A stretch of 38,059 bases of DNA, from the NCBI GenBank assembly GCA_032249135.1, contig JAVVGL010000019.1, forward strand, positions 1 through 38,059, written 5' to 3'. This DNA is from Candidatus Calescibacterium sp. (GTDB lineage Bacteria > Calescibacteriota > Calescibacteriia > Calescibacteriales > Calescibacteriaceae). Positions 2,974 to 26,414 of the stretch are shown here, in pieces. Under the pieces are notes generated by a model. It was not told where the DNA came from. It searched no databases and saw only the letters and a list, made by a program, of their open reading frames with translations. The position numbers and the translations under genes are program-made. How positions within the stretch are numbered: position 1 is the stretch's first letter; every line of letters begins with the position of its first letter.

Positions 2974-4389
2974 TTATGTAAATTTTTTGAGATCAGATAT
3001 ACTTTCTTTGAGAGCTTCTAAAAGAAAATCTATTTCTTTTGTTTTTATAGATAAAGGCAAATTTATAACCACTACATCACCAAGAGGTCTTATAAAAACT
3101 CCTTTTTTCCACATACTAAGACACACTCTCCAACCCGCAAGAAATCTCGGTGGAAAACTTTCTTTACCCTTTTTTACAATTTCTATTCCCCACATAAACC
3201 CCTTCCCTCTTATATCTCCTACGAACTCTAAATCCCAAAGCTCAGAAAGTCTCTTTTCAAGATACCTTATTTTATCTTGAATTTTCTGCAATATGTTTTC
3301 TTTTTTGAAAAGTTTCACATTTTCAAGAGCAAGATTGCATAAGATTGGATTACCAGTGAAAGTATGTCCATGAAAGAAATGTTTCCCTTCCCACTGTTCC
3401 CCGAGGAACACTTTGAAAATTTCATCTTTTGCCAAAGTCGCAGCAAGAGGGAGATATCCACCACTGAGTCCTTTTCCAAGACAAACTATATCTGGTAGCT
3501 CATCTTGTTTCTTTTTTAGTTCCCACTCAAAACCGAACATTTTTCCTGTTTTTCCGAAACCTGTTGCGACCTCATCTACTACTAAAAGAGCGCCTATTTT
3601 TTTTGTTTCTTCTCTTAGCATTTTGAGGTATCCGGGAGGCAAAGGTATTATCCCCCCTGCTCCTTGCACTCCTCCTTCAACAAAAACAGCGGAAGGTCTT
3701 TTTTTTCTCAAAATCTTCCGGGCTTTTTCCATACACTCAAAGGAACAAATTCTCTCTCCTTTTTCTTTTGCTCTGTTCCAACTACATCTGAAACAGAGAA
3801 CTGGTGGGAGTTCAATTGGACTGAAAAGAAGTTGAGAGTACTCTTTTGTAAATTGAGTCTTGCCAGATATAGACATAGCCCCGAGTGTATCTCCATGATA
3901 CGCATTCTTGACGCATGCAAATTTTATTTTTTTATTATTATTTCCGACTTTTTTACTATTTCTCTTTGCAAAAGAGAAAGCCATCTTTATAGCTATTTCT
4001 ACTGCTTCTGCTCCGTCTTCTGAAAAGAAGACTTTTGGGAGCCCCATAAGTCCGGAAAGTTCTTTTGCCAAAAGTATTGAGGGTACATTTGCGAGTCCCA
4101 AGGTTGTTGAATGTTGTAGTATTTTTGCTTGGGAAACTATTGCTTTCACAAGTTCAGGTTTTGAGTGACCATGCAAAACACACCATATAGAGGATACGGC
4201 ATCAAGATATTTTTTCCCATTTATATCAATAATCCAGTTCCCTTCTCCTTTACATATTATTGGTGGTTTTATTTTTTTGTAAAAGTTCATTTGAGTGTAC
4301 GGGTGCCAAAAATGTTTTAAATCCCATCTTCTCAAAGTTTCCTCCTTGAACTTCATCTGTTTTTCTTCTCTCATCTTTTTTCCCTTCAT
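2974..4389 (-). CDS. bioA: Adenosylmethionine-8-amino-7-oxononanoate aminotransferase
   Basis: WHPYTQM, LDAVSSIWC..HGH, AYHGDTLGAMS, DEVATGFGKTG, GKGLSGGYLPLAA, HGHTFTGNP. RBS AGGAGG upstream; adjacent to bioF. Confidence 0.95.
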   Translation of the reverse strand: MKGKKMREEKQMKFKEETLRRWDLKHFWHPYTQMNFYKKIKPPIICKGEGNWIIDINGKKYLDAVSSIWCVLHGHSKPELVKAIVSQAKILQHSTTLGLANVPSILLAKELSGLMGLPKVFFSEDGAEAVEIAIKMAFSFAKRNSKKVGNNNKKIKFACVKNAYHGDTLGAMSISGKTQFTKEYSQLLFSPIELPPVLCFRCSWNRAKEKGERICSFECMEKARKILRKKRPSAVFVEGGVQGAGGIIPLPPGYLKMLREETKKIGALLVVDEVATGFGKTGKMFGFEWELKKKQDELPDIVCLGKGLSGGYLPLAATLAKDEIFKVFLGEQWEGKHFFHGHTFTGNPILCNLALENVKLFKKENILQKIQDKIRYLEKRLSELWDLEFVGDIRGKGFMWGIEIVKKGKESFPPRFLAGWRVCLSMWKKGVFIRPLGDVVVINLPLSIKTKEIDFLLEALKESISDLKKFT

Positions 4390-12252: not shown

Positions 12253-13320
12253 TCAGTGTTTGCCATTCTTCCCGCTTCCTGACGCTTCTCCAAGGATGGT
12301 TTCTCTTATTGATGTCAAAATCATCTGTAAAGATGAATCTTTTTCTTTTTCTGCTTTTACTTTTTCTATTGCGTAGATTACAGTTGAATGGTCTCTGTTT
12401 CCGAAAATTTGTCCTATTTGTGTAGTTGATAGGTTCAGCATTTCTCTGCAAAGGTATATTGCTATTTGTCGTGCCATTGAAATATTCTTTTTTCGTCTGG
12501 GACTTTGAATTTCTTTAGGGTCAAGGTTGAAGAACTTTGCTGTTATTTCTATTATTTTTTTTGCATCAACATTTTTCAGTGGGACATTAAGTTGAGAAAG
12601 TGCCCTTTCAGCAAGTTCAAGGTTTGGCTCTTTTTCTTCTATTTCTGCGAACATAACTACTGTTTCGAGAGCTCCTTCAAGCCATCGGACATTTCCAGAA
12701 ATTCTCTCTGCGATATAGTATATTACCTCATCTGGGACCTTGTATCCTCTCTCATATGCTTTTGCTTTGAGGATTGCTACTCTTACATCAAACGGGGGGG
12801 GTTTTATTTCAACTATTCTTCCCCACTGGAATCTTGATATAAGTTTGCTTTCAAAATTTTTAAGGGAGTGAGGGGGTTTATCTGCTGTTATGACTATTCT
12901 TTTTTTTGTTATAAGGAGGTAATTTACTGTTTCAAAAATTTCTTCGCGGGTTGCAGATCTTGAATCGGTTTCAAGTAGATTTATATCATCTATCAGTAGC
13001 ACATCGCACATATCTCTGTATTTTCTTCTGAATTCTGTGAGTATGTTTTCTTGATATGCTGTCATAAATTCTCTCATAAATTCGTTTGCAGGTATATAAA
13101 TTACTCTTGCGCCGAATCCGTTTTCTAAAACTTCATTTCCTATTGCATGAAGAAGATGGGTTTTTCCGAGGCCGCTTGGACTCCATATAAAAAGGAGGTT
13201 TGTTCTTGATGTTCCTTTTGCAATTTCCATCGCAGCTGCTTTTGCTAATTTGTTGTTCTCTCCTGTCACATAATTTGAAAATGTGAACCTTCTGTCTATT
13301 GGAAACATAAGGTTAAGCAT
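12253..13320 (-). CDS. dnaA: Chromosomal replication initiator DnaA, domains III+IV only
   Basis: FTFSNYVTGENN, Walker A SGLGKTHLL, Walker B LLIDDI, SRFQWG, NVRWLEGAL, domain IV ARQIAIYL and RDHSTVIYA. SD AAGGAGGTG just upstream of the ATG. Confidence 0.92.
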   Translation of the reverse strand: MLNLMFPIDRRFTFSNYVTGENNKLAKAAAMEIAKGTSRTNLLFIWSPSGLGKTHLLHAIGNEVLENGFGARVIYIPANEFMREFMTAYQENILTEFRRKYRDMCDVLLIDDINLLETDSRSATREEIFETVNYLLITKKRIVITADKPPHSLKNFESKLISRFQWGRIVEIKPPPFDVRVAILKAKAYERGYKVPDEVIYYIAERISGNVRWLEGALETVVMFAEIEEKEPNLELAERALSQLNVPLKNVDAKKIIEITAKFFNLDPKEIQSPRRKKNISMARQIAIYLCREMLNLSTTQIGQIFGNRDHSTVIYAIEKVKAEKEKDSSLQMILTSIRETILGEASGSGKNGKH

Positions 13321-15252: not shown

Positions 15253-17811
15253 TCAGCTTATTTCTTCTTTTTCAACTTCTAATCCAGCTTGTTTTATTGT
15301 TTCTTTGATTTTATCTTCATAATCTGATTTTGAAATTTTACCCTCTTCCGCTGATATTTCTATTTTTAGAGAAACTTTTTGAAATTTCTCTTTAATTAAA
15401 TTCATCATCTTGTATATGTCAGAAAATTTTCCGGTTGGAGGAACATCAAGTTTAAGGAATATTTTGGAGTAAGTTTTCCTTTCTTTTCCCTTTGCTTTAA
15501 GTTCTTCATCTTCTTCTTCATACTTTTCTGGTTTAGTTAGAGGGGTTTCAGGTTTTTGATGTGGAGACTTTGCTTCTGAAATTTGTTTTTGTTGCAAGCA
15601 CAACTCTTTTTTGATTATGATTTCATCTTCTCTGAGTTCTGGGTCCGAGTCGCTTTCAAAGTATTTACAGATAACTTTTCCGTTTTCTATGTATCCGAGA
15701 CCAAATTCTCCTTTTTTTACTCCCTCTTTTATTGAGTTTTTCAGGACATTCTCATTTACAATCCTTTTTTCTCCGGGAGTTCTATAAAATGATTCGTAAA
15801 TATTTTTTGTTTCAACATAATCTTTATTTTTGAGGTAATCGTTAAGAACAAGATAACTTAATTTTTCAATGATTTCCCCTTCGCTTTTGAGTTTTTCATA
15901 TACTTCTTCATCTATGGTTTTTTCAATACCATAGGTAGCCATTCCTAAATTTTCCTCTTTGAATCCTGTTTTTGATGGAATAAGCAAAATACGATAAAGG
16001 TTTCTTATGTTTTCTTTTGCAGATGATTCTGCTTTTTTAACTTCATCTTTGACTCTTTTTTTCTGCTCATCACTCAGATGTAATTTCTTATCTTTTTCTA
16101 TCTCACTCCATGCGATTTTTCTTTTTGCGAATTGTTCAAAATTTATTCTTTCTGATTCAGATTGGCACAGGAAAATAAGAGTGTTGCGATATACTCTTGG
16201 CTTATCTCCGCAATATTCTAAAAATTCTTTGCATTTTGTTTTGTCTTTTAGGATAACGAGTTTAATTTTTTTGTCATCTGGGATGTCTTTTGAATTGCTT
16301 GGCCAGATATAAACTCTGAAATATTTACTATCTTTGCTTATAATTTTGTTCAGAAGCTCTTTTTCTTCTACTTCAATGTCTTTTGCTTTGACAGATTCAA
16401 TTTTGTCCAAAAGAATTCTATTTAAGTTTGGTTGGTTTGTAAAGAACAATCCAGAATCTGATATATAAAAGAGGTTCTCTTTCAGGAGCTGAATTGTTTC
16501 CACGATTACGCTGCTAGGGAAATTTACATCTGCGCAAGAAAGTTTTATTTCTTTTTCTGTTGCTCCTTTCTTTGGACCCCCTGAAAATGAGTAAAGAAAT
16601 ATTGCTGTTGCCACTTTTGTTCCAAATGAAAATGGGTAATATGATGTGCCAAGTGCTTTATCAACTCTTTTTGCTCCCGAATTTGGTGATGTTATATCTG
16701 CTGCTATTATGCTGTCATATTCTTGTCCTATGTGTTTTATAAGCTCTTTTCTCAGTTCTTCGTTTGTTAAATCAAAATCTCCTAACCTTATGAATGGGAT
16801 TTTTGAGTCTTTAAGTGAATGAACGACGAGGGCTAAAATTCTCAAAACTCCTCGTGTTCTTTGGAAGGTCGGAAAAGAACCCCAGTTTTTATATAATACA
16901 TCAATTACTTCTGGTTGAAATGGATAGCTTGCGTTGAACATTTTTCTGTACTGTGATACATCTATTCCCTCCGGGAGCATTTTTTCCTTTTCTACATAGG
17001 TCAAAAATTCTTCTATTACATCTGATGCTGCTTTCTGATCAATTGAGCTGAAAAGTCTTTTTCTTATAACTTGTGCTATTTCTTCATCTTGTACTGGTGT
17101 GAAAATTTTCTCAACTCTTCCGAATATTTTCTGTAATTTTAAGAAAAATTCTTCTCCCTTTTCGCTATAATGTTCAAGCTCACTTGATGGTAATGTAAAA
17201 ACTAAAACAGCTTTCGGTATAATTGATATTGCACCCGTGAGTTCTTGAAAAAAAGCAAGGTGCTGGTCAGCCAATGTTGTGGAACCAACTTTTACTCCTG
17301 CTGCTTTGATTATATATTGCAGAACTTCATCCATCAAAATCAGTAAAGGTTGATACTTTTCTAAAAGCTTTGTCAATTTTTCTTTGCCTGGTGCAGTCTG
17401 TCCTTTCAGCAGAGTTATTTTTTCTGTGAGTTGCTTTTCAATCTCTTCCCACAGCGTTATTTCCTTTGGGTCGTAAGCTGTTCCGTCAATAACTACTAAA
17501 TTTGATTTCCATTCTTCTTTTGCCTTGTGATAAAGAGCTATCAGAGAGTGAGTTTTTCCTCCTCCGAATGGGGTTTGGAGCTGAATTATAGGGTCTCCAC
17601 CCTTTCCGTCAATTCTATTTTTTACGACATCAAAAAGGTTTTTCATTCCAGCGGTTATATAGGTTCTACTGAAAAAGACATTCGGATTCTGATATTCGTC
17701 GGGGGCGTCTCCTTTATATACTTTCATAAGGTCGGCAGCATAAACATCAAGCGAAAACCGACCTTCAAGAATATCTTTGTGTGGTATAGCTATTGCTGTA
17801 AAAGGTTTCAT
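15253..17811 (-). CDS. DUF499-family AAA+ ATPase
   Basis: PHKDIL, YAADL, Walker A LQTPFGGGKTHSL, Walker B LMDE, SYPFQPE, FQRTRGVLR. Neighbours are the typical DUF1156 and SNF2 genes. Confidence 0.88.
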   Translation of the reverse strand: MKPFTAIAIPHKDILEGRFSLDVYAADLMKVYKGDAPDEYQNPNVFFSRTYITAGMKNLFDVVKNRIDGKGGDPIIQLQTPFGGGKTHSLIALYHKAKEEWKSNLVVIDGTAYDPKEITLWEEIEKQLTEKITLLKGQTAPGKEKLTKLLEKYQPLLILMDEVLQYIIKAAGVKVGSTTLADQHLAFFQELTGAISIIPKAVLVFTLPSSELEHYSEKGEEFFLKLQKIFGRVEKIFTPVQDEEIAQVIRKRLFSSIDQKAASDVIEEFLTYVEKEKMLPEGIDVSQYRKMFNASYPFQPEVIDVLYKNWGSFPTFQRTRGVLRILALVVHSLKDSKIPFIRLGDFDLTNEELRKELIKHIGQEYDSIIAADITSPNSGAKRVDKALGTSYYPFSFGTKVATAIFLYSFSGGPKKGATEKEIKLSCADVNFPSSVIVETIQLLKENLFYISDSGLFFTNQPNLNRILLDKIESVKAKDIEVEEKELLNKIISKDSKYFRVYIWPSNSKDIPDDKKIKLVILKDKTKCKEFLEYCGDKPRVYRNTLIFLCQSESERINFEQFAKRKIAWSEIEKDKKLHLSDEQKKRVKDEVKKAESSAKENIRNLYRILLIPSKTGFKEENLGMATYGIEKTIDEEVYEKLKSEGEIIEKLSYLVLNDYLKNKDYVETKNIYESFYRTPGEKRIVNENVLKNSIKEGVKKGEFGLGYIENGKVICKYFESDSDPELREDEIIIKKELCLQQKQISEAKSPHQKPETPLTKPEKYEEEDEELKAKGKERKTYSKIFLKLDVPPTGKFSDIYKMMNLIKEKFQKVSLKIEISAEEGKISKSDYEDKIKETIKQAGLEVEKEEIS

Positions 17812-17813
17812 TT

Positions 17814-19049
17814 TTATAACAACCTCCCAATTGTTTTTTCTTCTTTTATTTCTTCTTTTATTTTTTCTTTGCCTGAGAGGAAACCATCAAGAAGTTTTTT
17901 TTCTTTGCTGTCTTTTGGGAGTATTTCTGATATTGCCTGCGCCACTTTGTAAAAAGAATCATTGCTACCAAATCCAGTTTCTTGGAGAACTTTTTTCATC
18001 TCCTCTCTCCTACCATCCTTCCATAGTAGTAGAACTCTGTGAAGAACATCAATCAGCTCTGTTGAGTTTTCAAGTTCTTTCAAATTCCTATCTTGTGGTC
18101 CGAGAACTTTTATGAATTCTTTTTCTTTCTTTATGAAACCTTTGTTCCACTCTCGTGCGAGGTCTATCCCAACGCTTTGAGCGAGCTTTCTTGCTTCATC
18201 AAACTCAACTTTGCCCTCTCCAAATGCCCATCTGAAAAGTATGTAAAACCTTGTCAAGGGTGAAAGCTCACCGGCAATCCCATTATGTAGAATTTGACGA
18301 ACAGCATAATCTGTGACGACTTCCCTGACGAACTCCAAAAGTTTATCTGCCCTTATAATGTTTCCCTCGTAGTCCATAACCTTTTCGTATTTGCCGAAGA
18401 TTTCAATTGCGGAGCCAATTCCAGCGATGAAAAAGTCAGCACCTGAAATTCCTTCACTCCATAATCTATCAAGTTTTTGGAAAATATGCTTTTTAATCTC
18501 TTCTTTCACTTCATTAAACCAACCTGTCTCTTCTCTCTTAATTTTTCTGCAAACTATGTAAATTGAAGAGACAAGTGAGGCGGTTTCTCGCGCATTCAAT
18601 CTCTCTTTCATTTCAGTATCAATTGGCCATGATGCGGTGGGGACAAGTCCGGAGTCCAAAAGTGAGTTTATAAGTGTTTCCCACCCAGCAGTTGATTTGT
18701 GAGCATAAACGATAATGCAGATCCCGTTTGGTTTTAAAACCCTATAAATTTCCTGAAATGATTTTTTCAGCATTTCTTCAAAGAATCTTTTTGCTGATTC
18801 TTGATTTCCATGTCTTACTGGATTTGCTACTATTTCTTTTGATTTCGGTGTAAGAGGGGTTGAAAATAAATCAGGATATAAATCGCCGATGCTTCTTTTC
18901 AGCCATACATAAAAGAAATCAGAAAGTTCAGCATAGTTTACATTGTCATAATAGGGCGGGTCTGTGAAAACTGCATCAAAGTAGTTGTCAGGATAAGGTA
19001 GTTAAGTTGCAGAAGATTGTGAAACAACAGGGATATGTAATTTTTTCAT
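17814..19049 (-). pseudogene. C-terminal (catalytic DPPY) half of a split DUF1156 adenine methyltransferase, with premature TAA at codon 16
   Basis: Manual translation from ATG 19049: [51 protein letters not shown]..., continuing in frame into the 17814..18773 ORF. TAA at 19004-19002; DPPY at 18962-18951. Confidence 0.85.
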
Positions 19050-19057
19050 TCTTCAAC
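19043..19057. repeat. 15-bp direct repeat, copy 1 (TTTTCATTCTTCAAC)
   Basis: Identical to 19360-19374; spans the MNT stop and MTase-C start. Confidence 0.8.
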
Positions 19058-19366
19058 TCCCTTTTGTAATATTAATTTAGTTATATCCTCTTTTACATTT
19101 TCCCAGAGTAAAGATTTTTGTTTCAAAGCGGAAAGGGTTAGAACATCTACTTTTATTCCGAGGATATTTTCAAGATAATCACAGAGTTCATAGAATTTGA
19201 GCCCTATCGGTCTTTCAAGCTCAACAATTATATCTACATCACTTGTTTCATTTTGTTCTCCTCTTGCATAGGATCCAAAGACGCCAACTATTACTACTCC
19301 ATATTTTTCTCTTATTTCTGATTTATGCTCCGCAAGTATTCTCTTTATTTCTTCAAGCGTTTTCAT
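19046..19366 (-). CDS. Minimal nucleotidyltransferase (MNT/MntA-type antitoxin)
   Basis: 106 aa; [16 protein letters not shown] (GSx10DxD), [11 protein letters not shown]. Confidence 0.9.
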
Positions 19367-19374
19367 TCTTCAAC
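19360..19374. repeat. 15-bp direct repeat, copy 2 (TTTTCATTCTTCAAC)
   Basis: Spans the MTase-N stop and MNT start. Confidence 0.8.
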
Positions 19375-20820
19375 CTCCACTGGTGGAATTTGGGTAAGAT
19401 GAGAAAGAACATTAAGAATCCAGTCCATAGCTGATTGCCAGTCTGCATTACCGCCAAAAGGATTAACTTCTGAATAGTCCCAGGTCATAGCCAAAGCTTG
19501 TCTGCCCATACCTGGATTTACTAATTCTCTTGTATTATGCCAATAGCCAAACATAGTAGCATAAATTGCCAACCTATTTACCCCCAACCCCAAATAGCTC
19601 ACCACTGCTTTTGCGTATTCTTTATCGTATCCTTCTTCAATCATTTTTTTATAAGCGAGGCGGACTTTTTCTGTGAATGTAATCAAAGCAAGTTTCTGGC
19701 GGGAGTTGAAAAGGTCACCCCAAACTTTAAAACCGTAGCCTCTTCCTGCAACAGTTGTCGGGTCATCTTGGTTCATTTCTTCATCTGGCACAGGGTCGAT
19801 TCCCCATTCTTCCATCAATTTTTTTCTTTTTTCTTCAAGGTATTTTTCTGCGGATTTGAAAATCTTCAAGTCGTTTTCTGTTGCCAATCTATAAATTTTT
19901 CCCTTTGCTCGTGGGTGGTGTAGAACAACTGCGACCATTCTTTGACCTGCTTTTCCATCTTGGAAAAGTTTTCTTACTGTTTTATCATCTTGGGTTGAGC
20001 CACAGACGAGACACGACGCAATTGCTCTGCTTATCGTTCCTTTTTCAGGTTCAAAGTCAAGAGGGAAATTATTATCTTGTCCTACAATTTCAAATTCAAC
20101 TTTTTTATCTTTTATAATGGGTTTTAGAGCAATTTTTCTCGTATCTTTTTTTGCAAGCCAGAATTGTCTCATCAAAGGAATTTCAGCTCCACAGGATGGA
20201 TTTTGGCAAGGAATTGTTCTTGCCCAGATGTATCCCACAGGTATTGAGCCATCTTCATCGTTTGGGTAGAATTTCCCTATCTCTTTTTTTGCTTCTTCTA
20301 AAACCCAATTTCCCCATTTTTTTACATCTTCAAGCAAAGGAATTTCAATCCATCCATCTTTTGTTTTTTGAGGTCTTCCGTATTTTTGTGGGTATTCAAG
20401 TGTGCATTTTAATATTAAGACGGCAACGGGGTTATATTCATTGGCGTATGTCTCCATTCCGAGTCGCAGGCATTCAAGAGGTATAGAACCACCGCCTGCG
20501 AATGGGTCTAAAACTTTGAGAGTTTTTCCGCCGTTTGCTTCTAAAATATCTTTTCTTGCTTTTTCAATTATCGTTTTATTCAGAGAGTTTTCCCATTTTG
20601 CAAGGTTTTCTATAAACTGTTTTTTTGTGTCCCATTCCAAATTGTTTTCAGGAGCCGGAATTAGTGCAGCATAAGCCGTAGCTCTTGAAGATGCTAATGG
20701 TCTTCTTGCCCACCATATATGCAAGGTTGAAATATGCCCGTGTCTTATGTTTTTTTCTCTTGATGATTCTTCGCTAACTTCTTTGACGGGGAAACTTACT
20801 TCAATAAAGCTTTTTTTCAT
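19363..20820 (-). CDS. N-terminal half of a split DUF1156 adenine methyltransferase
   Basis: [13 protein letters not shown]-binding [10 protein letters not shown], Zn-ribbon-like [28 protein letters not shown]. No DPPY motif. Confidence 0.88.
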
Positions 20821-20866: not shown

Positions 20867-21094
20867 TTAAGTTCTGGGAATATAAATAGTTTCTTTGAAA
20901 ATATATTCTTTGAGTTCTTCTCTCACTGTATCATAGGGAACAACATCAACTTTTTTAATTCCGAGTTTTTCTTCAAGAAAGAGAGCAAGTCCAACAAATT
21001 CAAATAATTTTGCTTTTTTATAAAATTTCACAAGCACATCAAGGTCGCTTTTTTTCTTTTGTTCTCCTCTTGCGTAGGATCCGAAAATACTCAT
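20867..21094 (-). pseudogene. 5'-truncated second MNT nucleotidyltransferase
   Basis: [30 protein letters not shown]. Lacks the ~25-aa N-terminal segment present in the first MNT. Confidence 0.7.
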
Positions 21095-24619: not shown

Positions 24620-25148
24620 TTAGCAATCATATTTTTCAATGAAATACTTAAATGATGTATTTTTCTGCTTTGCTACTTCTATGGAAAAATTTTTCAGAAT
24701 TTCTGACATAAAATCTATTCTATCAAATTTTTTGGGTATCAAATTGTTAAATTCTTCCTTGGTAATGTTGTTTGTATTTTCTATGACCTTGATTTTAAGT
24801 TTTTTGCAGTGTTTATTGTCTATTCCTGCAAGGTACCAACTTTCTATTTCTTTTATAATAACAATGATTCTATCTATTTCTACATTTTTTAACTTTCTTT
24901 TTATTTCTTCCTTTTTGCGGTTACGCAGGGAGATTGGTCAATATCTACGACATAAAAATAATCAGCTCCCATTGATTTGATACTTCTGATGAAGTTAGAA
25001 ATTTTTTCTGTTTTTTGTTGGGCGTATTTCCATATTTTTACTGTGCCATATTTTTTTTGAAATTTTGGAACTATAATTTTTTGAAAAAATCTTTCGTCAT
25101 CGTTGACTTCTACGAAGAAAAAATAAGTAGTTTATATTTTGTGCTCAC
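24620..25148 (-). pseudogene. Frameshifted TOPRIM-like protein partnered with the ABC ATPase (absent from the ORF track)
   Basis: GTG 25148 overlaps the ATPase stop (GTGA). Stitched translation: ...FFVEVNDDERFF...YFYVVDIDQSPC...IIVIIKEIESWYLAG...SFKYFIEKYDC*. Frame changes near 25120 and 24914. Confidence 0.7.
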
Positions 25149-26414
25149 AATTCCAATAGATTTTGTATATAAAGTTCTTCAATTCCTATTTCATTTTTTA
25201 GAAATGTTTTTACATTTTCTTTTTCGGATGGTCTGGAAATGACGGAGAATCCTTCTTTATCTCGTGAGATAAGTAAGAGGTTTTCTAAATCTGCGAGTTT
25301 TACTATCTCGGGATTGTGAGTTGAAACGAGAATTTGAATGTTGTTGGATGCGTCTTTCATCATTTCTACTACTTTTGATATAAGATAAGGATGTATATTT
25401 CTTTCGGGTTCTTCAATTATGGTTAAGGGTTTCTTCTCAAAAAATAAAGCTATAATTAAGGCAGTTATATTTATGGTCCCATCAGAGATCAGAGATGCCG
25501 GCAAATACTGTTTTTTATTGTAAGATTCCTTCAATTTAAACAGCAGAGATTTATCAGCAAATTTCTCCACGGACAAATTATCTACGAAGGGTAAAAGGTC
25601 TTTCACTAAGTTAGAAAGCTTTCTTTTCTTTTCTTTATCTCCTAATATATTTTTTAGAACTATTGCGAGATTACTTCCATCCTCTTCAAGTTCAGTTTTC
25701 CCAGTTATTGGGGTAGCTTTTTTAGGAAGTTTTGGATCAAAATCATATATTGCAATACCCCGATTGAATAAATCGGAAATTGGTGGATTGATTATCAGGA
25801 TGGGAGGAAACTCAATGAGTAAAGTTTTTGATCTAAAATTTATATTTTCAAAATACGGTAAAGATATATCATCTTTTTTTATTTCCAGTCCTCCGGTTAT
25901 TTCAGCTTTGATTTTACCGTTTGCAACAGAAAATATAATCTCTCCTTTCCCAAAGTTTTTTTCTTCTTCTATTTTACCGTTCTTTGACCTCTCTACCTGA
26001 ACAAGATTTCCTCTATGTATTAATTTATCTTCAACAATTTCAAATTCTTTCCGTTTCTTGCTAAATCTCAGAGTGAATCTATAAGCTATTTCATAGGTTT
26101 CTACCATAAGGCTTTTTTCTTTTATTATTACTGGCCAGCTTTTAAATGGTCGGTCAGGGATTACTTCTATTTCTATTGAGAGATTCTCATATGGACCAAT
26201 ATTTATGTTTGTTAAGATAATCTACTCCACCTTGTATAGATATTGCATTATCTAAACCATAGTTCCTTATATCTCTGAGGAACTTAAAGATTTGTATAAA
26301 ATTAGATTTTCCAGATGCGTTTGGTCCAATTAATACATTAAATTTTCCAAGTCCAACCTCTAAATCTTTGAAGCTTTTGAAATTTTTTACTTTTATTTTC
26401 CTTATTATGGTCAT
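25145..26414 (-). pseudogene. ABC-type ATPase (AAA_15/AAA_21-like) with a +1 frameshift near 26212
   Basis: The 5' ORF has KNFKSF and Walker A GPNASGKSN. The 3' ORF has ISDGT, IEEPERNIHP and STHNP, and its frame is open back to ~26212 (TNINIGPYENLSIEIEV...). Confidence 0.85.

Follow-up and report, generated by a model that had tools for sequence, protein, structure and literature searches.

A conserved cargo slot proposed inside the split hmaB methylase gene of Hma operons, with a decayed copy in Candidatus Calescibacterium

Introduction

Two arrangements related to the locus described here are already known: toxin–antitoxin or abortive-infection genes placed between the genes of restriction-like operons, and methylases split into two polypeptides. 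M.AquI and M.EcoHK31I are naturally split methylases, in which one fold is made of two polypeptides; both are C5 methylases encoded by adjacent or overlapping genes, with no cargo between them. The present analysis concerns hmaB, the methylase gene of an Hma operon on contig JAVVGL010000019.1 of Candidatus Calescibacterium sp. (GenBank assembly GCA_032249135.1, 2.1 Mb, 87% complete); the entire contig of 38,059 nucleotides was analysed and is referred to below as the window. Unlike M.AquI and M.EcoHK31I, hmaB is of the N6 type, is cut before motif IV and encloses cargo between its halves, 317 bases long in the window and 0.3–1.3 kb elsewhere.

Hma is renamed a Type-1 DUF499-centred BREX-related system in the main text of PMC12839542, and HmaA is described as tested in Halomonas meridiana in the available part of PMC11232893. 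The window resembles the system of PMC12839542, as its main text presents it, in the usual order of the core genes and in the position of the methylase insert after core strand 2, with which the structure model presented below agrees; it differs in that hmaB consists of two open reading frames (ORFs) with cargo inside the coding region. Insertions are given for about 66.5% of hma operons in the available part of PMC11232893, and nested defence or toxin–antitoxin genes are also found at the loci studied here, as a remnant of a minimal nucleotidyltransferase (MNT) gene between hmaA and hmaB in the window and as MNT genes between hmaB and hmaC in other Hma loci. The known insertions lie between genes, whereas the one under study is placed within hmaB, always at one codon position, and appears to be chained in translation to the two halves.

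A further parallel is the anticodon nuclease PrrC, nested in the EcoprrI type Ic restriction-modification operon (main text of PMC3710099). It is likewise a HEPN RNase within a restriction-modification-like operon and offers a model for a second-line or guard effector, but it is situated between complete hsd genes, forms a fusion with an ABC ATPase and lacks an MNT. The cargo itself resembles the Type VII HepT/MntA pairs described in the available part of PMC13000451, with matches to PF01909/PF18765 and PF01934, an MNT gene that comes first and overlaps HepT, and an Rx4H motif. It differs from these in having no locus of its own, being embedded in the reading-frame context of another gene; in the window, furthermore, the toxin is deleted and the antitoxin bears the toxin's last codons. 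In Type VII systems, MntA AMPylates and neutralises HepT.

The words "split", "interrupted", "fragmented" and "two polypeptides" occur zero times in the main text of PMC12839542, whose supplements may list such loci, and "split" occurs zero times in the main texts of PMC3710099 and PMC2701414 as well. A fixed, conserved cargo slot inside a methylase coding sequence was not found in the literature searched, as far as the main texts are concerned.

The locus as a whole is probably best explained by a conserved lineage of split hmaB genes with a cargo slot, cargo exchange by recombination in the flanks, and a decayed copy in the window. This lineage, widespread and mostly found in thermophiles, would encode the methylase in two ORFs cut at a fixed surface turn before the strand that precedes DPPY. 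The gap would serve as a slot for one or more MntA-type genes, accompanied in about half of the loci by a HepT/HEPN RNase toxin, and the anatomy suggests that the C-terminal half (C-half) is translated by coupling through the cargo via four-base overlaps. Cargo would be exchanged between diverged hmaB genes by homologous recombination in conserved flanks, not through a dedicated repeat, and would most likely act as an addiction module, a backup abortive-infection module, or both. In the window the slot would have decayed by an in-frame deletion of HepT, leaving MntA and a HepT tail with its junction, and a single recent GAA>TAA change would then have cut off the catalytic half.

Results and Discussion

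Conservation of the split site

The original prediction, made from the letters of the window alone, held that the DUF1156 methylase is encoded by two genes, an N-terminal half (N-half) with the S-adenosylmethionine (SAM) motif FAGGG and a C-half with DPPY, and that an MNT gene lies between them. ORFs and profile matches agree with this for the N-half and the MNT; DPPY is indeed encoded in the C-half stretch, but it lies behind an in-frame TAA and in no intact ORF.

A scan of metagenome contigs with the MNT protein yielded 80 loci. Among the 41 with the closest MNTs (L020–L060), the MNT stands between N-half and C-half homologues in 23; three have an N-half upstream and then reach the contig end, five have only a C-half downstream, four carry the MNT at another Hma gene border, and six have no Hma gene. 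When one genome per species was scanned with the N-half, 50 loci were recovered, distributed over many phyla of bacteria and archaea. Scoring covered the 69 loci in which N-half homology reaches its end: 29 are fused (one of them a duplicate record), 27 are split, seven show an N-half end after which the contig or the homology stops, and six run off the contig. One of the 27, L109, was considered as a clean or empty split and rejected, as it is a frameshift in a fused gene without cargo. No split-empty allele was seen among the loci compared, in which no targeted search for one was made.

The linker at which hmaB is cut is the same in 26 cargo-bearing loci and in two single-contig genomes, G073 (1.76 Mb) and G079 (1.83 Mb). 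The N-halves end in IPPVE(V/T)EE, ..EEEG and similar tails before the stop codon, and the C-halves begin M(K/R)K(L/I)x(I/L)P.V.Q.SAT.LPYPDNYFD. Split loci were also found without the MNT as seed, including L105 (Campylobacteraceae), L106, L120, L135, G073, G079, L102 (Thermodesulfovibrio) and L110 (Bathyarchaeota), whose C-half, accompanied by HepT, is on another contig, L152. In G073 the slot reads N517-NTase163-MNT98-HepT119-C412 (numbers are amino acids; NTase, nucleotidyltransferase), all genes being intact and overlapping; in G079 it reads N519-NTase124-46aa-C414. The split is hence not unique to the window among close homologues, though the closest relative, genome G001, is fused. G073 (L169) holds, besides its split, cargo-bearing hmaB, a fused paralogue with an open frame of 906 aa.

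The abundance of C-halves is readily apparent from a search with the intact C-half against 5.8 billion proteins, in which at least 2747 of the 8000 proteins scored are relatives at E ≤ 1e-20. Of the best 120 clusters, 104 are 399–444 aa long, that is, stand-alone C-halves; sources include Thermotoga petrophila, Thermodesulfobacterium, Caldisericum, Thermodesulfovibrio, Dictyoglomaceae and Kapaibacteriota. Among eight relatives whose N-termini were inspected, seven begin at the split site, and the eighth (P0177), a partial record without a start, begins upstream. About 73 of the best 150 N-half representatives are at least 840 aa long, and fused forms are evidently the majority of the wider HmaB family. 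Short "N-half-only" proteins were not used for the split counts, since most of the 15 are contig-truncated fused proteins that reach DPPY.

Two further arrangements were encountered. In L038, L043, L054 and L056, whose MNTs are 80–86% identical, hmaB stops at about N-half residue 290 and resumes at about C-half residue 87, without DPPY and the final part of the insert; such loci are probably degenerate derivatives. Protein P0001 (1749 aa) consists of two complete fused HmaB units in tandem.

Position of the cut in the predicted fold and selection on both halves

The fused HmaB of G001 (909 aa) was modelled with AlphaFold2 from 87 sequences, giving a mean predicted local distance difference test score (pLDDT) of 93.5 and a predicted template modelling score (pTM) of 0.92; an earlier model from 17 sequences was uninformative at the junction, with residues 468–544 below pLDDT 50. 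In the 87-sequence model a strand at 102–105 precedes FAGGG (107–111) and another follows at 123–128, after which the large four-Cys insert fills about 150–490. Hairpin strands come next at 496–498 and 502–504, followed by 509–512 and by the strand 525–530 that leads to DPPY (531–534), with more strands at 606–678. By alignment, the split corresponds to the hairpin turn 499–501, where the ten-residue blocks have pLDDT values of 82 and 86 against 94–98 around them.

Motif I (FAGGG) and motif IV (DPPY) lie on one sheet in this model of a fused relative, as expected of an amino-methylase, and the catalytic core is divided over two ORFs instead of residing on a single polypeptide. The model places SAM-binding and catalytic elements on what would be different polypeptides of one fold. 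As the SAM motif is on the N-half and DPPY on the C-half, the two halves would have to assemble in order to methylate. A Foldseek comparison with the PDB gave 0 matches at E ≤ 0.001, with only generic class-I methyltransferases appearing, and a PDB sequence search returned one weak match; no solved relative could be named from either search.

Between split loci the ratio of nonsynonymous to synonymous substitution rates (dN/dS) is 0.07–0.39 for the N-half and 0.07–0.22 for the C-half, and no variation is seen in FxGGG among 24 aligned sequences or in DPPY among 26. Judged by these ratios, both halves are under purifying selection. For the cargo, where synonymous divergence (dS) is unsaturated, dN/dS is 0–0.26 for MNT and 0.26–0.28 for HepT.

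It could be supposed that an MNT simply landed once in a fused hmaB and left a pseudogene in pieces. The fused 909-aa hmaB of the same genus has no MNT, the C-half of the window carries a nonsense codon, and removal of one unit of the junction repeat described below leaves the halves out of frame, the fused relative having four more bases there. Such one-off damage is nevertheless barely credible in view of the same cargo-bearing split in 26 loci and two genomes, at N-half identities down to about 60%, the 104 stand-alone C-half clusters, the low dN/dS of both halves, and locus L020, which differs from the window by one base and has both halves intact. The claim that the split is an evolved, conserved state is thereby sustained by the common break point, the abundant stand-alone C-halves and dN/dS values well below 1.

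The junctions and the 15-mer repeat

As predicted, both junctions are ATGA stop/start overlaps (19366–19363 and 19049–19046), each with a Shine–Dalgarno-like (SD-like) stretch, GGAG(G) or GGGAG, seven bases before the ATG, and VEE forms the C-terminus of each upstream protein. At the two junctions (Table 1) the 15-mer GTTGAAGAATGAAAA is present in exact copies, with a spacing of 317 bases; the 2.1-Mb assembly holds only these two exact copies and four more places with one mismatch.

The original prediction also gave this repeat a part in the mechanism, in which case it might be the recombination site through which cassettes enter and leave, comparable to attC of integrons. The restriction of the exact direct repeat to the two junctions is in line with this proposal, as are the 11 bases shared in L035 and the ..EEEG-stop-ATG junction repeated inside the slot of L059/L060. 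A comparison of 18 loci makes it highly improbable: the longest string common to the left and right junctions is 15 bases in the window, 11 in L035, 8 in L045 and 4–7 in the 15 further loci, the control mean being about 5 bases. The sharing in these 15 loci is only at control level, and conserved recombination repeats such as bound integron-like cassettes are not found. Furthermore, the junction types occur singly: the left junction string is also present in L029, L035 and L045, the right junction of the window also follows a HepT that is intact or nearly so in L027 and L035, and each type is found without the other elsewhere, for example in L027. High-identity tracts run past the junction into the C-half. 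An allele lacking the 317 bases was sought as a 19057>19375 joint and was absent from the contigs of four sequencing runs, contigs being prone to drop rare variants; no recombinase domain was detected in the ORFs scanned around the operon, a scan that did not exhaust the window. The 15-mer repeat is real, but it is no general feature of the slot.

The origin of the repeat is indicated by related alleles that retain HepT. In these MNT-HepT alleles (L030, L033, L035) the MNT ends in ..KEDIVYV and HepT in ..ILQKG(I/G/V)E(K/E), the latter over the start of the C-half. Aligned with L035, the window-type allele shows a clean deletion of about 290 bases that corresponds to HepT, with 83–97% identity outside it across the MNT and the junctions, and the last ~10 codons of the slot MNT (about 19046–19080) match the tail of the deleted gene. 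On this alignment, the window MNT is evidently MntA fused to the last HepT codons after an in-frame deletion, which explains the second VEE-stop/ATGA junction and with it the 15-mer repeat. The right copy is accordingly the inherited HepT-tail/C-start junction and the left copy the N-tail/MNT-start junction. An adjacent HepT (DUF86) RNase with Rx4-6H is absent from the window, where only these codons remain. The predicted toxin–antitoxin cassette is hence present in part: the MNT is there, and the cassette is incomplete, its toxin partner having been lost.

Cargo of the slot

The cargo comprises nucleotidyltransferases of PF01909/PF18765, HepT-like proteins of PF01934 (E 1e-20 to 6e-32) and, in L022 and L036, PF05168 HEPN proteins. 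It is arranged as MNT alone, MNT-HepT, two pairs (L044) or MNT-HepT-MNT (L059/L060); an extra NTase of 163–165 aa or a remnant of 36–64 aa may stand before the MNT, and another NTase type occurs in L168 and L063. In the pairs the MNT comes first and overlaps HepT, in which Rx4H is present (RNRMIH in L169, for instance). The junctions are mostly four-base stop/start overlaps after purine-rich tail codons (EE, EEG or EKG before the stop), and among the 17 loci in which both ORFs are intact, 11 have a C-half start that overlaps the stop before it. The proposal that the gap is a slot for toxin–antitoxin cargo which keeps translational coupling is thus upheld by variable HepT/MntA cargo in the 26 loci and the two single-contig genomes.

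Cargo and flanks differ markedly in divergence. Between L020 and L023, dS is 0.17 for the MNT against 3.1 for the N-half and 2.2 for the C-half; between L035 and L030 it is 0.32 for the MNT and 0.19 for HepT against 2.2 and 1.6 for the two halves. The reverse pattern is seen between L030 and L041, with 0.80 for the MNT and a saturated HepT against 0.25 for the C-half. DNA identity is 90–98% over the cassette and 45–65% in the flanks, and it decays into the C-half. Since the cargo is far less diverged than its flanks, cassettes evidently move between hmaB genes. The HepT-deleted cassette of the window recurs in L022, a locus with an hmaB from the other deep clade.

An NTase gene or remnant is found in all 28 slots covered end to end, and a HepT/HEPN ORF of at least 83 aa in 15 of them. 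This raises the possibility that the NTase is a working Hma part, such as a regulator acting by nucleotidylation of an Hma protein or a nucleic acid, with HepT as an optional extra. The HepT-less MNTs keep a GSx10DxD-type motif, dN/dS is 0.14 between the MNT-only loci L020 and L023, up to three NTase genes share one slot (L169, L060), and an MNT also stands at other Hma borders in 9 of 27 fused loci; MNT or HepT genes at such borders are likewise seen at the hmaA/hmaB border of the window and in L050 and L051. This role is improbable all the same, because decaying toxin–antitoxin modules are expected to lose the toxin first, the 36–64 aa remnants and the broken NTases of L106 and L045 show that NTases decay too, and many fused Hma operons have no MNT in the stretch covered, in a census that leans towards MNTs.

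HmaC of this hmaB clade lacks an N-terminal extension in all 50 loci, fused and split alike. According to the main text of PMC12839542, 1370 of 2446 Type-1 taxa have DUF499 fused to a HEPN RNase, and this RNase is proposed as a last-resort effector. As the HmaC of this clade is devoid of HEPN, a stand-alone HepT could supply that function, and by this analogy HepT could correspond to the DUF499-fused HEPN, MntA serving as its switch.

A purely selfish passenger, for which the hmaB linker is a safe harbour because imprecise loss would destroy a selected gene, fits the data about as well as that counterpart role. The cargo follows a history of its own and passes from one diverged hmaB gene to another, toxins are often lost while remnants persist and the coupling junction is kept, and insertions in hma operons are common, as the frequency cited above indicates. 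Against a passenger without benefit stand the HEPN-less HmaC of the clade, for which HepT could substitute, and the dN/dS of 0.26–0.28 for intact HepT. Purely selfish cargo is therefore regarded as possible, if on the doubtful side.

A more elaborate scheme, which is tentative and rather unlikely, would make the slot a working circuit. The C-half would be made only by ribosomes that have passed through MntA/HepT, HepT would replace the DUF499-fused HEPN with MntA as the switch, and interference with Hma would release the abortive RNase; the cassette would pass from split to fused genes through gene conversion in the conserved flanks, much as a homing element does, but with no endonuclease.

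The nonsense codon and decay of the window copy

From the coupled ATG (19049) the reading frame stays open for 15 codons and then meets an in-frame TAA, upstream of DPPY, and the first canonical start thereafter, ATG 18773, lies downstream of DPPY. Consequently, the catalytic motif is in no intact ORF of the window. The TAA aligns with a Glu codon in the fused gene of the same genus. Over 6318 bases, the window and metagenome contig L020 show one difference, TAA versus GAA, and the C-half of L020 is an intact ORF of 411 aa. The codon is GAA in contigs of three of four runs (X5, X8, X13) and TAA in run X3, from a near-identical strain, whose contigs have TAA at depth 94.5 with 0 other letters. 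The coverage in X3 weighs against an assembly error, which is not excluded outright. Recoding or another genetic code was considered and rejected, since TAA also serves as the stop codon of hmaB-C, and L020 and three runs have GAA at this position. Of all possible single substitutions in the stretch shared with L020, only 2.4% would create a stop in hmaB.

Strain L021, 94–97% identical, has two other hmaB nonsense codons, one in each half: TGA at W37 (N-half) and TAA at Y23 (C-half; L021:1526-1800 and 3318-3390). Taken with the TAA of the window, these codons show that hmaB is repeatedly inactivated in this population, which suggests that its loss is selected for. Of 22 assessable loci, 16 retain an intact C-half ORF. 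With broken C-halves and the L021 stops, decay is common and the window copy is probably non-functional; judged by its reading frame, the methylase of this strain is very probably dead.

Points that weigh against a conserved split lineage

Several results weigh against the explanation preferred here. In G001, of the same genus, both Hma operons contain a fused hmaB and no MNT; many loci, drawn from similar hot-spring material, are not independent; six of the 22 assessable C-halves are broken, that of the window among them; and L021 adds its two nonsense codons. The cargo census is biased, because the MNT itself led to 22 of the 28 slots, while the six found via hmaB agree with the rest. A single split clade is rejected by the approximately unbiased (AU) test (p 8.8e-67), for a group named after the tree was seen.

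Moreover, the last ~70 N-half residues are a mosaic of discrete types common to split and fused genes, so that counts of gain and loss taken from the trees lean upwards and may be inflated. These counts are at least three state changes, forced by the starred branches, in the C-half tree, where split forms occur in both of the 100%-supported deep clades, and at least five in the N-half tree, where the same-genus fused gene nests among split ones. The linkers of two fused genes, ..PPVEIGAKVKKLLISQV.. in G001 (L018, G001:C13) and ..ESAEEERKTLNIPQV.. in L143, resemble an N-tail joined to a C-start; they look like scars of a former split, re-fused after loss of the cargo.

In the window the last ~70 hmaB-N codons (~19397–19577, minus strand) form a hypervariable block whose types reassort among split and fused hmaB across phyla. 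Many run contigs replace exactly this block (joints 194xx to 1957x-1958x).

Gene map of the operon

By PADLOC and Pfam profiles, the operon in the window is Hma, in the minus-strand order hmaA, hmaB-N, MNT, hmaB-C, hmaC (Table 1). The three core genes are on one strand in the usual order with strong profile matches, and the promoter/terminator scan detected nothing resembling a terminator on the gene strand within the operon, a weak result that is merely compatible with one transcript.

Table 1. Features of the Hma operon in the window
Feature	Position	Strand	Description
hmaA	21155..24538	minus	SNF2 helicase with C-terminal NOV_C/DUF3883 nuclease-type domain, 1127 aa, intact
Second MNT, N-terminally truncated	20867..21094	minus	75-aa ORF between hmaA and hmaB-N
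hmaB-N	19363..20820	minus	485 aa; DUF1156 helical domain, Rossmann strands 1-2 with FAGGG, four-Cys insert
Left junction, first 15-mer copy	19360..19374	minus	N-half tail codons, SD-like GGAGG, ATGA overlap with MNT start
Slot MNT	19046..19366	minus	MntA-like minimal nucleotidyltransferase, 106 aa; PF01909 E 1.5e-16, PF18765
Right junction, second 15-mer copy	19043..19057	minus	Former HepT tail, SD-like GGGAG, ATGA overlap with hmaB-C start
Private nonsense codon TAA	19002..19004	minus	Glu16 GAA in L020 and runs X5, X8, X13
hmaB-C	17814..19049	minus	411 codons, broken at codon 16 here; DPPY, remaining methylase fold, C-terminal helical domain
hmaC	15253..17811	minus	DUF499 ATPase, 852 aa; PADLOC HmaC E 1.2e-143; PF04465

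The hmaA product matches PADLOC HmaA (E 8.7e-207) and the Pfam domains SNF2-rel_dom, Helicase_C and NOV_C. Within HmaB, the N-half matches PADLOC HmaB at profile positions 8–550 of 973 (E 8.9e-81) and PF06634, and the C-half at positions 572–873 of 973 (E 1.7e-51). DPFAGGGS occupies residues 105–112 of the N-half, where F107, G109–111 and C205/C210/C270 are invariant in the alignment; in the C-half, D30-P31-P32-Y33, preceded by a strand, is invariant in 26 of 26 sequences. The slot MNT carries the G-S..D-x-D motif of MNT-fold nucleotidyltransferases, and its nearest solved chain is 1wot_A, a minimal nucleotidyltransferase (E 8e-8). The HmaC of the window has an N-terminal extension of 0 aa, that is, no HEPN extension.

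The truncated second MNT matches PF01909 (E 1.3e-11) over profile positions 19–93 of 93 and is 42% identical to the slot MNT. It has no equivalent in the same-genus operon of G001, where the ORF map shows hmaA and hmaB overlapping directly. A similar, second MNT type stands directly before the C-half in L059/L060.

Beyond the operon, an AAA_21 ATPase gene (PF13304, "putative AbiEii toxin" type; 25145–26107, minus strand) lies just upstream of hmaA and is possibly another defence gene of the island. A 355-aa DnaA-like protein is encoded at 12253–13320 (minus strand), with a Bac_DnaA ATPase and a C-terminal helix-turn-helix but without the usual N-terminal domains. The stretch is common to 20 sequencing runs, of which 17 are labelled hot-spring metagenomes and three sediment metagenomes.

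Conclusions

The copy of hmaB in the window is a decayed example and is less interesting than its family. The split slot spans Calescibacterota to Bathyarchaeota and includes named Thermotoga and Thermodesulfobacterium proteins; for annotation, thermophile proteins of 410 aa labelled "DUF1156 domain-containing" or "DNA methylase" would be enzyme halves and not fragments. The slot clearly exemplifies the exchange of cassettes through recombination in conserved flanks, and it gives a direct way to test HEPN RNases as guards of BREX-related systems. If the halves assemble as the position of their motifs suggests, the family would offer a natural two-subunit N6-methylase for study.

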